DNA of 64,000 nucleotides. It comes from Escherichia coli. GTDB lineage: Bacteria; Pseudomonadota; Gammaproteobacteria; Enterobacterales; Enterobacteriaceae. The stretch is taken from assembly GCF_003019035.1 (NCBI RefSeq), contig NZ_CP027447.1. One strand, written 5' to 3'. Shown in pieces: positions 22,603-25,554 of this stretch (within the stretch, counting starts at the first letter, position 1; each line of letters starts with the position of its first letter). The notes beneath the pieces were generated by a model. The model did not search any database. It was given only the letters and a program-made list of their open reading frames with translations, and had not been told where the DNA came from. Both the position numbers and the translations under genes were made by a program.

Positions 22603-22956
22603 AATTCGGATCTCAAGGAAATCGCAATGGTCGGCGAACTGCCACCCGCAGGTGCTGTGAATCCGAGTATAAAGAGGCCGTAGTTTAAATTTTGACTAAT
22701 CTTGGGATTCGTTGAGAAAGGTGATTATCACCATGCGAATTAACGAAGTTTTTACGGAGGGAAACATTCTCTAGACTATCCTTAACGATTCAGCCACTTT
22801 TTTATGTTGCTTTTTTGTAAACAGATTAACACATCGTCAAAATCCTGCTATTCTGCCCGTTGCGGTACTGGGCATTTACCCTACAAACTGCTGTCTCACA
22901 GGAGCGTGAAGAGAATCGCCTGCCGCACTATGACAATGAGAGCGAGGAGAACCGTC

Positions 22957-25554
22957 GTGCTAGAAGAATACCGTAAGCACGTAGCTGAGCGTGCCGCTGA
23001 GGGGATTGCGCCCAAACCCCTGGATGCAAACCAAATGGCCGCACTTGTAGAGCTGCTGAAAAACCCGCCCGCGGGCGAAGAAGAATTCCTGTTAGATCTG
23101 TTAACCAACCGTGTTCCCCCTGGCGTCGATGAAGCCGCCTATGTCAAAGCAGGCTTCCTGGCTGCTGTCGCCAAAGGCGAAGCTAAATCCCCACTGCTGA
23201 CTCCGGAAAAAGCCATTGAACTGCTGGGCACCATGCAGGGTGGTTACAACATTCATCCGCTGATCGACGCGCTGGATGATGCCAAACTGGCACCGATTGC
23301 TGCCAAAGCACTTTCTCACACACTGCTGATGTTCGATAACTTCTATGACGTAGAAGAGAAAGCGAAAGCAGGCAACGAATATGCGAAGCAGGTAATGCAG
23401 TCCTGGGCAGATGCCGAATGGTTCCTGAATCGCCCGGCACTGGCTGAAAAACTGACCGTTACCGTCTTCAAAGTCACAGGCGAAACCAACACCGATGACC
23501 TTTCTCCGGCACCGGATGCGTGGTCACGCCCGGATATCCCACTGCACGCGCTGGCGATGCTGAAAAACGCCCGTGAAGGTATTGAGCCAGATCAGCCTGG
23601 TGTTGTTGGTCCGATCAAACAGATTGAAGCTCTGCAACAGAAAGGTTTCCCGCTGGCGTACGTCGGTGACGTTGTGGGTACGGGTTCATCGCGTAAATCC
23701 GCCACGAACTCCGTTCTGTGGTTTATGGGCGATGATATTCCACATGTGCCGAACAAACGCGGCGGTGGTTTGTGCCTCGGCGGTAAAATTGCACCCATCT
23801 TCTTTAACACGATGGAAGATGCGGGTGCACTGCCAATTGAAGTGGACGTCTCTAACCTGAACATGGGTGACGTAATTGACGTTTACCCGTACAAAGGTGA
23901 AGTGCGTAACCACGAAACCGGCGAACTGCTGGCGACCTTCGAACTGAAAACCGACGTGCTGATTGATGAAGTGCGTGCCGGTGGTCGTATTCCGCTGATT
24001 ATCGGGCGTGGCCTGACCACCAAAGCGCGTGAAGCACTTGGTCTGCCGCACAGCGATGTGTTCCGTCAGGCGAAAGATGTCGCTGAGAGCGACCGCGGCT
24101 TCTCGCTGGCGCAGAAAATGGTAGGTCGTGCCTGCGGTGTGAAAGGCATTCGTCCGGGCGCGTACTGCGAACCGAAAATGACTTCTGTTGGTTCTCAGGA
24201 CACCACTGGCCCGATGACCCGTGATGAACTGAAAGACCTGGCGTGCCTGGGCTTCTCGGCTGACCTGGTGATGCAGTCTTTCTGCCACACCGCGGCGTAT
24301 CCGAAACCGGTTGACGTTAACACTCACCACACGCTGCCGGACTTCATTATGAACCGTGGCGGTGTGTCGCTGCGTCCGGGTGACGGCGTAATCCACTCCT
24401 GGCTGAACCGTATGCTGCTGCCGGATACCGTCGGTACTGGCGGTGACTCCCATACCCGTTTCCCGATCGGTATCTCTTTCCCGGCGGGTTCTGGTCTGGT
24501 GGCATTTGCAGCCGCAACAGGCGTAATGCCGCTGGATATGCCGGAATCCGTTCTGGTGCGCTTCAAAGGCAAAATGCAGCCGGGCATCACCCTGCGCGAT
24601 CTGGTACACGCTATTCCGCTGTATGCGATCAAACAAGGTCTGCTGACCGTTGAGAAGAAAGGCAAGAAAAACATCTTCTCAGGTCGCATTCTGGAAATTG
24701 AAGGTCTGCCGGATCTGAAAGTTGAGCAGGCCTTTGAGCTGACCGATGCGTCCGCCGAGCGTTCTGCTGCCGGTTGTACCATCAAGCTGAACAAAGAACC
24801 GATCATCGAATACCTGAACTCCAACATTGTCCTGCTGAAGTGGATGATCGCGGAAGGTTACGGCGATCGTCGTACCCTGGAACGCCGTATTCAGGGCATG
24901 GAAAAATGGCTGGCGAATCCTGAGCTGCTGGAAGCCGATGCAGATGCGGAATACGCGGCAGTGATCGACATCGATCTGGCGGATATTAAAGAGCCAATCC
25001 TCTGTGCACCGAATGACCCGGACGACGCACGTCCGCTGTCTGCGGTACAGGGCGAGAAGATCGACGAAGTGTTTATCGGTTCTTGCATGACTAACATCGG
25101 TCACTTCCGTGCTGCTGGTAAACTGCTGGATGCGCACAAAGGTCAGTTGCCGACCCGCCTGTGGGTGGCACCGCCAACGCGTATGGACGCTGCGCAACTG
25201 ACCGAAGAAGGCTACTACAGCGTCTTCGGTAAGAGTGGTGCGCGTATCGAGATCCCTGGCTGTTCCCTGTGTATGGGTAACCAGGCGCGTGTAGCAGACG
25301 GTGCGACGGTGGTTTCCACCTCTACCCGTAACTTCCCGAACCGTTTGGGTACTGGCGCGAATGTCTTCCTGGCTTCTGCTGAACTGGCTGCTGTTGCGGC
25401 GCTGATTGGCAAACTGCCGACGCCGGAAGAGTACCAGACCTACGTGGCGCAAGTAGATAAAACTGCCGTTGATACTTACCGTTATCTGAACTTCGACCAG
25501 CTTTCTCAGTACACCGAAAAAGCGGACGGGGTGATTTTCCAGACTGCGGTTTAA
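22957..25554 (+). CDS. acnB: Aconitate hydratase B / 2-methylisocitrate dehydratase
   Basis: GTG start (…gaggagaaccgtcGTG, RBS GAGGAG) giving [16 protein letters not shown]...; 865 aa; Fe-S cluster aconitase domains. Confidence 0.95.

Follow-up and report, generated by a model that had tools for sequence, protein, structure and literature searches.

The 5' end of acnB in Escherichia coli K-12 has been described. Its transcription start at -96 was known (Cunningham 1997) and was re-mapped to the same position by 5'RACE (PMC2760140, Table 1). The latter study also reported an extra 5' end at +47, designated 'acnBp3', for which no promoter was predicted. RyhB was found to pair at the initiation region of acnB mRNA in experiments that included in-line probing, and inhibition was seen in 30S toeprints (PMC4150767, Fig. 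S2 and S3). A 6-nt RyhB mutant, 'mutstart' (RyhBmutstart), abolished the repression of acnB (PMC4150767).

The stretch of E. coli DNA analysed here (the window) is 64,000 nucleotides long; of 5426 complete genomes of this species, 5425 matched it. We interpreted the region before acnB to be simply the known 5' end of this gene, with a GTG start at 22957, a 96-nt leader, a sigma-70 promoter and a RyhB site (probability about 0.96). Reference annotation and published work already cover all four: start codon, promoter, length of the leader and RyhB site.

The acnB start codon and the open frame upstream

The features of the coding region and of the frame upstream are as follows.

22957–25554, plus strand: acnB coding sequence, 865 codons plus stop
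22957–22959, plus strand: GTG initiation codon of acnB (RefSeq and K-12 annotation; conservation)
22944–22949, plus strand: Shine-Dalgarno GAGGAG; an SD-like 4-mer is conserved in relatives
22804–22956, plus strand: spurious 51-codon upstream extension; first 57 bases upstream of the mapped transcription start, no Shine-Dalgarno, stops in relatives
22930–22938, plus strand: two in-frame ATGs (22930 and 22936), not AcnB starts; inside the 5'UTR, no usable Shine-Dalgarno

The original prediction had placed the start of acnB at GTG 22957, with GAGGAG upstream. This was borne out by RefSeq, K-12, PDB 1L5J and 79 of 80 species compared. The initiation codon was read as GTG in the window sequence. 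RefSeq/PGAP annotates the start at 22957, and K-12 b0118 (131615..134212) maps to the same position, with K-12 131615 corresponding to 22957. A spacer of 7 nt (22950–22956) separates GAGGAG from the GTG; the '8 nt' given originally is the count from the last G of GAGGAG to the G of GTG.

The protein in PDB 1L5J is 865 aa long and begins M-LEEYRK, and its length equals that of the ORF from 22957. The first 148 residues translated from 22957 aligned with residues 2–148 of its chain A (E = 3.6e-90). N-terminomics and reannotation supplements and a full-text search for AcnB with Edman gave no direct AcnB N-terminus. The annotation, the structure, the transcript data in the literature and the comparison of genomes all point to GTG 22957 as the real start and to the upstream extension as not real.

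Mechanical ORF calling extended the frame 51 codons 5' of the GTG, to ATG 22804 (916 aa in total). AcnB might begin at this ATG, or at ATG 22930 or 22936 (adding 9 or 7 residues), with the GTG read as an internal valine. The frame is open from 22804, and the latter two ATGs, which were absent from the original prediction, lie downstream of the transcription start, within the real 5'UTR, and share the AcnB frame in E. coli as well as in 17 of the 80 species. Such an upstream start is nevertheless highly improbable. ATG 22804 is at -57 from the mapped start; since transcription starts at -96 (T22861), this ATG is not on the mRNA. It is replaced by GTG in one divergent E. coli, and the sequence directly 5' of it, cagccacttttttATG, has no purine-rich motif. 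None of the three ATGs has a Shine-Dalgarno at a usable distance: no such motif was found 5–10 nt before 22930 or 22936, and AGGAG at 22900–22904 is 25 nt from 22930.

The relatives gave the same picture. A 1-nt change of the spacer in Citrobacter, Kluyvera and others shifts the frame of 22930/22936 and produces a TGA stop at -7, with the DNA motif ATGACAATGAGAG kept. In Vibrio species, stops are located at -2 to -5. Of the 80 species, 29 had an in-frame stop no more than 10 codons upstream, and 72 had one no more than 51 codons upstream. For every one of the 80 loci, the tblastn similarity began precisely with residue 1.

The longer N-termini from 22804, 22930 and 22936 were therefore ruled out by the transcription start, the missing Shine-Dalgarno and the frame and stop data in relatives, and the upstream-start reading is essentially refuted. 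Because ATGs 22930 and 22936 lie on the mRNA, a minor longer AcnB proteoform is excluded solely by the missing Shine-Dalgarno and the missing conservation. The extension had been described at the outset as lacking an RBS and as not conserved, and both descriptions held. Calling the longest ORF (916 aa) is an error here, explained by the position of its ATG within a conserved promoter element; a check of this kind is useful as quality control.

Promoter, leader and the yacH-acnB intergenic region

The features upstream of the coding region, and one inside it, are listed below.

22600–22602, minus strand: yacH start codon (ATG), left border of the intergenic region
22603–22956, no strand: yacH-acnB divergent intergenic region, 354 bp
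22780–22857, plus strand: near-invariant promoter block, CCTTAACGATTCAGCC...ATGTTGCTTTTTTGTAAACAGATTAACAC-N7-AAATCCTGCTATTCT; contains ATG 22804 at about -57
22826–22831, plus strand: -35 hexamer TTAACA (promoter scan; invariant in relatives)
22846–22854, plus strand: extended -10 TGcTATTCT (promoter scan; the acnBp1 -10 is tcctGCTATTCTgccc in PMC2760140, Table S1)
22861, plus strand: acnB transcription start (acnBp1), T22861, 96 nt 5' of the GTG (PMC2760140)
22861–22956, plus strand: 96-nt 5'UTR, the actual leader (mapped transcription start)
23003, plus strand: additional 5' end (+47) within the coding sequence; the b0118 +47 sequence Ggattgcgcccaaacccctgg in PMC2760140 matches the window

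A promoter scan of 22500–23060 gave a single sigma-70-like site, consisting of TTAACA, 17 nt and TATTCT with an upstream TG (9 of 12 matches). The acnB promoter is reportedly under several regulators, with activation by CRP and repression by ArcA, Cra/FruR and Fis. The published -96 start falls 7 nt past the -10. The acnB primer EM1259 begins with TGCGGTACTGGG, which is window position 22861, and the acnB2688 construct ends two codons before the end of the ORF, a numbering that fits a 96-nt UTR (PMC4150767).

The yacH ORF occupies 20749..22602 on the minus strand, and the end of K-12 b0117 at 131260 corresponds to 22602. The length of 354 bp predicted for the divergent region was thus correct. 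The 'long leader' predicted for acnB was right in that the GTG does follow a leader; this leader is the 96-nt 5'UTR, however, and not the 354-bp intergenic region. Multiple regulated promoters had also been expected in this region. What was found is one mapped sigma-70 promoter for acnB, plus the +47 end without a predicted promoter; in the sources consulted, no promoter was found for yacH. Of acnB and yacH sites, the supplements of PMC2760140 contained only acnB -96 and +47, and none for yacH. Because the published mapping reports further 5' ends, including +47, the acnB transcript picture may exceed a single start.

As the divergent neighbour of acnB, yacH was found only in Escherichia, Citrobacter, Pseudocitrobacter, Kluyvera and close relatives, in which the region spans 339–442 bp. 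When eight species of the Escherichia/Citrobacter/Kluyvera group were aligned, nearly all columns of the block at 22780–22857 were invariant, whereas the rest of the intergenic region diverged. The block was largely retained in Pantoea, Yersinia and Edwardsiella too. One E. coli lineage, diverged to about 92% in the upstream intergenic region, had a 5'UTR 100% identical to that of the window.

Predicted folding of the 5'UTR was no better than that of shuffled sequences (z = 0.47). A consensus fold of 12 Enterobacteriaceae had a covariation term of +0.2, and only 2 of the 26 predicted pairs showed a compensatory change. There was no Rfam match in 22400–23200 at E up to 1. A riboswitch-like structured leader was rejected on these results. 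No terminator was found in a scan of the region. The sole find of an inverted-repeat search was a palindrome at 22681–22698; GGTGATTATCACC (22724–22736), which this search did not report and which is not conserved beyond Escherichia, was dropped.

Taken as a mechanism, the sigma-70 promoter (22826–22831; 22846–22854) starts transcription at T22861 and gives a 96-nt leader bearing a strong Shine-Dalgarno, GAGGAG. The 30S subunit initiates 7 nt downstream of it, at GUG 22957, to produce the 865-residue AcnB. The open frame 5' of the GTG is an accident of sequence, with ATG 22804 located in a conserved DNA element upstream of the promoter and untranscribed from it. RyhB, the iron-starvation small RNA, docks on the initiation region and occludes the Shine-Dalgarno and the start codon, so that 30S binding is blocked.

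Conservation of the GUG codon and pairing with RyhB

In E. coli, GUG commonly serves as a start codon, in about one gene in seven. Its conservation in acnB was examined in 80 gammaproteobacterial species, whose loci were located by tblastn; with MLEEYRKH as the search pattern, any bias would be towards ATG. These species are related, and the counts are not independent events. The codon aligned with AcnB residue 1 was GTG in all of them except one, an uncultured Candidatus Enterovibrio with ATG. All 80 had a Shine-Dalgarno-like 4-mer 5–10 nt 5' of the start. Synonymous sites at codons 7, 9, 13 and 14 were scrambled, whereas G1 was kept in 79 of 80. The non-coding positions -3 to -1 were G, U and C in 72, 70 and 71 species, respectively, and the Leu2 codon was always CUN, never UUR.

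Across 23 genera of Enterobacterales, 22933–22949 and 22954–22963 were invariant. Within E. coli, a 64-nt initiation region was identical in 5424 of 5425 genomes, and none of the 5425 had ATG at the start position. A second acnB copy, island-borne and without the native leader, begins with ATG UUA.

The published RyhB pairing site includes the acnB start codon, and the corresponding complementarity is present in the window.

22937–22961, plus strand: predicted RyhB pairing region (…AUGAGAGCGAGGAGAACCGUCGUGCU), covering the Shine-Dalgarno and the start codon

The predicted duplex with the RyhB core has an energy of -24.7 kcal/mol and an 8-bp helix, in which GUCGUGCU is fully paired with AGCACGAC. 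This core is in the conserved part of the Rfam RF00057 consensus. Changing G1 to A would cost the predicted duplex 5.8 kcal/mol. The specificity of the duplex is modest, as 0.8% of random 50-mers of the window and 12 of 2000 shuffles reached the same energy. The complementarity was therefore set aside as weak stand-alone evidence, and the published experiments were relied on instead. A C to U change in the RyhB core AGCACGAC, giving AGCAUGAC, would be compensatory to a change of GUG to AUG.

What is added here is that the RyhB pairing segment, with the G of GUG included, is conserved at the level of sequence from Escherichia to Vibrio and Aeromonas. The start, the transcription start, the RyhB binding and the toeprint are published, and the conservation of GTG, of the Shine-Dalgarno and of the upstream stops comes from the present analysis; that GUG is partly retained through pairing of its G with RyhB is what we infer.

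GUG may be under selection as a part of the RyhB target. In this explanation, which we put forward tentatively, G1, the non-coding GUC and the CU of Leu2 would form the 8-bp helix with the RyhB core, and AUG would weaken the iron-sparing repression. The full pairing of the helix and the cost of G1 to A are as expected from it, and so are the preference for GUC at -3 to -1, the constant CUN at Leu2, the conserved RyhB core and the loss of repression with 'mutstart'. The lone ATG in an uncultured species and the ATG UUA of the leaderless island-borne copy also point in this direction. On the other hand, GTG was also retained with triplets other than GUC at -3 to -1, namely in Shewanella (GCC) and in Rheinheimera and Stutzerimonas (ACU). 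It was also retained in Pseudomonas-type sequences and in P. putida. Pseudomonads are not known to have RyhB; their acnB is repressed by the PrrF small RNAs. The unexceptional duplex energy and the relatedness of the species count against this explanation as well. That purifying selection holds GUG across Enterobacterales, Vibrionales and Aeromonadales, with the choice of start codon dictated by the RyhB target site through the 8-bp helix, is doubtful.

The persistence of GTG outside the RyhB-bearing lineages would fit retention for translation itself, either because a weaker start codon would keep initiation on the mRNA of an abundant iron-sulfur enzyme at a moderate rate or because the G would pair in a local mRNA hairpin. 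The candidate hairpins were AGAGCGA/UCGUGCU, around the Shine-Dalgarno, and CGUGCU with AGCACG of codons 7–9. Minimum-free-energy and consensus folds both set UCGUGCU opposite AGAGCGA, and codon 8 was CAC in 74 of the 80 species. We regard retention for translation as unlikely. The 5'UTR did not fold better than shuffles, and the hairpins had no covariation support. Vibrio and Aeromonas do not have the GCGA arm, and AAA at codon 7 breaks the second hairpin there, yet GTG is still kept; the two hairpins were rejected as the reason for the G for this lack of conservation. Among AcnB homologues of less than about 76% identity, moreover, ATG is common, which indicates that ATG is compatible with the enzyme.

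RyhB pairing thus may help to explain the retained G, but it cannot be the whole reason. If the link with RyhB is causal, acnB would show clearly how a regulatory RNA can constrain the identity of a start codon. The near-absolute conservation of GUG in a small RNA pairing site, as opposed to ATG in the leaderless island copy, is a mildly interesting by-product of the analysis.

Comparison with known systems

The AUU start of infC is likewise a non-AUG start that is held over long evolutionary distances and has a regulatory role. Its mechanism is established as discrimination by IF3, whereas any role of the acnB GUG itself is at the level of a hypothesis.

The closest match is K-12 acnB (b0118) with PacnB/acnBp1 (Cunningham, Gruer & Guest 1997; Mendoza-Vargas et al. 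2009, PMC2760140), which has the same GTG, -10, -96 start and 354-bp region. The window, which is from a different E. coli strain, differs from it by only a few intergenic bases, and by nothing of substance.

The RyhB-acnB system (Benjamin & Massé 2014, PMC4150767) is of the same kind as RyhB-sodB: the small RNA lies over the Shine-Dalgarno and the start codon, 30S is blocked, and Hfq helps. It differs in that the outcome depends also on the binding of apo-AcnB to the 3'UTR.

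Locus and start codon of acnB

The stretch 22503-23059 was matched by 5425 of 5426 complete E. coli genomes, most of them with an identity of at least 99%. The matched DNA belongs to two genes of the K-12 annotation, listed here with positions converted by subtracting 108658 from the K-12 MG1655 coordinate:

20749-22602, minus strand: yacH (b0117; K-12 129407-131260), DUF3300 protein
22957-25554, plus strand: acnB (b0118; K-12 131615-134212), bifunctional aconitate hydratase 2/2-methylisocitrate dehydratase

The length of yacH was strain-dependent, being 617 aa in the window and K-12 and 585 aa in FDAARGOS_536, of which the intergenic region was identical to that of the window. 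This suggests indels, perhaps within internal repeats of the protein. As a divergent neighbor of acnB, yacH was restricted to a small group of genera.

The intergenic region (22603-22956) was 354 bp, as originally predicted. GAGGAG at 22944-22949 was followed by 7 nt and then by GTG at 22957-22959, the position predicted for the start, and translation from this codon read V(M) plus 15 further N-terminal residues. The frame was also open upstream, as had been claimed; the extension reached ATG 22804, giving a mechanical ORF of 916 aa (the annotation plus 51 codons). All these statements of the original prediction were correct; two more in-frame upstream codons, ATG 22930 and ATG 22936, were absent from it.

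GTG 22957 is annotated as the acnB start in the K-12 reference and by RefSeq/PGAP, in a comparison strain identical to the window across the 557-nt query. The only solved AcnB structure, PDB 1L5J, has 865 residues, and its residues 2-148 aligned with the translation from the codon following the GTG.

A comparative scan with one genome per species gave 80 loci, from Enterobacterales, Aeromonas, Vibrionaceae, Shewanella, Rheinheimera, Pseudoalteromonas and Stutzerimonas. The alignment began at AcnB residue 1 in every locus, and the codon aligned to this residue was GTG in 79 and ATG in one; any bias from the search pattern, MLEEYRKH, would be toward ATG. A Shine-Dalgarno-like 4-mer lay 5-10 nt 5' of the start in all 80 species. 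Of the 80 species, 29 had an in-frame stop in the 10 codons before the start, 49 had one in the preceding 20 codons and 72 in the preceding 51; it lay at -2 or -5 in several Vibrio species and at -7 in the Citrobacter/Kluyvera group. The sole ATG was in the uncultured Candidatus Enterovibrio escacola (comparative locus L081:1201-1203), with the preceding GTC retained (GTC ATG CTT).

The ATGACAATGAGAGCGAGGAG DNA motif was retained regardless of whether its ATGs (22930 and 22936) shared the acnB frame, and therefore these are not AcnB starts. The 64 nt from -31 to +33 were 100% identical in 5424 of 5425 E. coli genomes, and no exact match to an ATG-bearing version of this query was found among E. 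coli genomes.

In a metagenome survey of 120 contigs, the acnB start was GTG in 68, ATG in 29 and TTG in 5, and only where the identity of the homologues fell below about 76% did ATG become common. The enzyme is thus compatible with an ATG start, and GTG retention is lineage-specific.

A second acnB copy was found on a human-gut metagenome contig, most of a stretch of which was contained in 21 complete E. coli genomes:

L132:127-2724: second acnB copy, human-gut metagenome contig
L205:7127-9724 (NZ_CP102244.1 877199-879796): second acnB copy, E. coli

At the DNA level, this copy and window 22958-25581 shared 96.4% identity. The copy lay 25 nt past citG, closing an island-borne citCDEFXG citrate-lyase operon between IS66 remnants. 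It lacked the native leader and started with ATG TTA AAA, compared with the native GTG CTA GAA.

Promoter, leader and divergent region

The known acnB p1 start at -96 (Cunningham 1997) was re-mapped to -96 by 5'RACE, with the -10 'tcctGCTATTCTgccc' (Mendoza-Vargas et al. 2009, PMC2760140). The promoter scan gave a single sigma-70-like site (TTAACA at 22826 and, after a spacer of 17 nt, TATTCT, which ends at 22854 and is preceded by an upstream TG), which coincided exactly with p1. This agreement placed the transcription start at T22861. Independently of the 5'RACE, primer EM1259 (Benjamin & Massé 2014, PMC4150767) opens with TGCGGTACTGGG, at 22861, and the construct numbering in that paper (acnB2688 ends two codons before the ORF end) is consistent with a 96-nt UTR.

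This places ATG 22804 at about -57 from the transcription start, outside the transcript, and it was rejected as an AcnB start. Annotation, 1L5J, transcript mapping and the 80-species comparison all bore out the prediction that acnB starts at GTG 22957 and that the upstream extension is not real. A leader does precede the GTG, but the predicted long leader is a 96-nt 5'UTR (22861-22956), not the 354-bp region.

The leader matched no Rfam family, was no more stable in its fold than shuffled sequence (z = 0.47), and displayed no covariation among 12 Enterobacteriaceae. It was nonetheless strongly conserved: in an E. coli lineage with upstream intergenic DNA diverged to about 92%, the whole stretch between the -10 box and the GTG was identical to the window. 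Invariant columns over 23 Enterobacterales genera were concentrated at 22933-22949 and 22954-22963. An additional 5' end without a predicted promoter ('acnBp3') has been reported at +47, window 23003 (PMC2760140); lying inside acnB, it may mark RNA processing instead of transcription initiation.

A block of about 75 bp (22780-22857), carrying a T-rich tract, was near-invariant in the Escherichia/Citrobacter/Kluyvera group, where the remaining intergenic DNA diverges, and was partly kept in Yersinia, Pantoea and Edwardsiella. It included the acnB promoter and reached well past the -35 and -10 hexamers. ATG 22804 falls inside this block and is therefore conserved as promoter DNA, not as a codon. 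The block also contained CGATTCAGC, a candidate Cra/FruR half-site by its resemblance to the consensus. In the 1997 work of Cunningham et al., the promoter reportedly has CRP as an activator and ArcA, Cra and Fis as repressors.

A second conserved patch lay on the yacH side at 22665-22712 (GAGTATAAAGAGGC...TAGTTTAAATTTTGACTAATCTTGGGAT), with a palindrome at 22681-22698. Judged from a minus-strand TATACT there, where the promoter scan made no call, it may be the yacH promoter. In the accessible literature on acnB and yacH 5' ends, only the +47 end was found beyond p1, and no yacH start site. The predicted multiple regulated promoters are reasonable, because divergent genes require at least two, but what is documented is one promoter with several regulators.

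RyhB pairing over the start codon

The acnB initiation region is a pairing site of RyhB, the iron-starvation small RNA; repression of an AcnB-LacZ fusion was lost with 'mutstart', a RyhB altered at 6 nt, and RyhB inhibited the 30S toeprint on acnB with or without Hfq (Benjamin & Massé 2014, PMC4150767). With the K-12 ryhB sequence, the conserved core of which in the Rfam RF00057 consensus is GCACGACAUUGCUCACAUUGCUUCCAGU, a duplex of -24.7 kcal/mol was predicted at window 22937-22961. In it GUCGUGCU (-3 to +5) was fully paired with AGCACGAC, and a G-to-A change at the GUG raised the predicted energy to -18.9. The same helix was predicted in Enterobacterales, Aeromonas and Vibrionaceae.

The non-coding positions -3, -2 and -1 were G, U and C in 72, 70 and 71 of the 80 species, respectively, and the Leu2 codon was CUN in every one, whereas synonymous sites a few codons further downstream were scrambled. 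Together these findings support, but do not prove, a constraint of the small-RNA site on the start codon; that small-RNA pairing restricts which start codon is used we regard as a tentative reading, with a probability of about 0.3. As a full explanation of GTG retention, RyhB pairing faces several difficulties. The duplex energy alone was unremarkable, being reached by 12 of 2000 shuffles and by 0.8% of random 50-mers of the window. GTG was kept despite different -3 to -1 nucleotides in Shewanella, Rheinheimera and Stutzerimonas, and also in Pseudomonas-type sequences and P. putida. Pseudomonads are not known to have RyhB; there the PrrF small RNAs repress acnB.

The original observation was confirmed and its interpretation supported. 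The feature is not novel: the start is the one already known and annotated for acnB, behind a 96-nt leader, and both its promoter and its small-RNA site are known.
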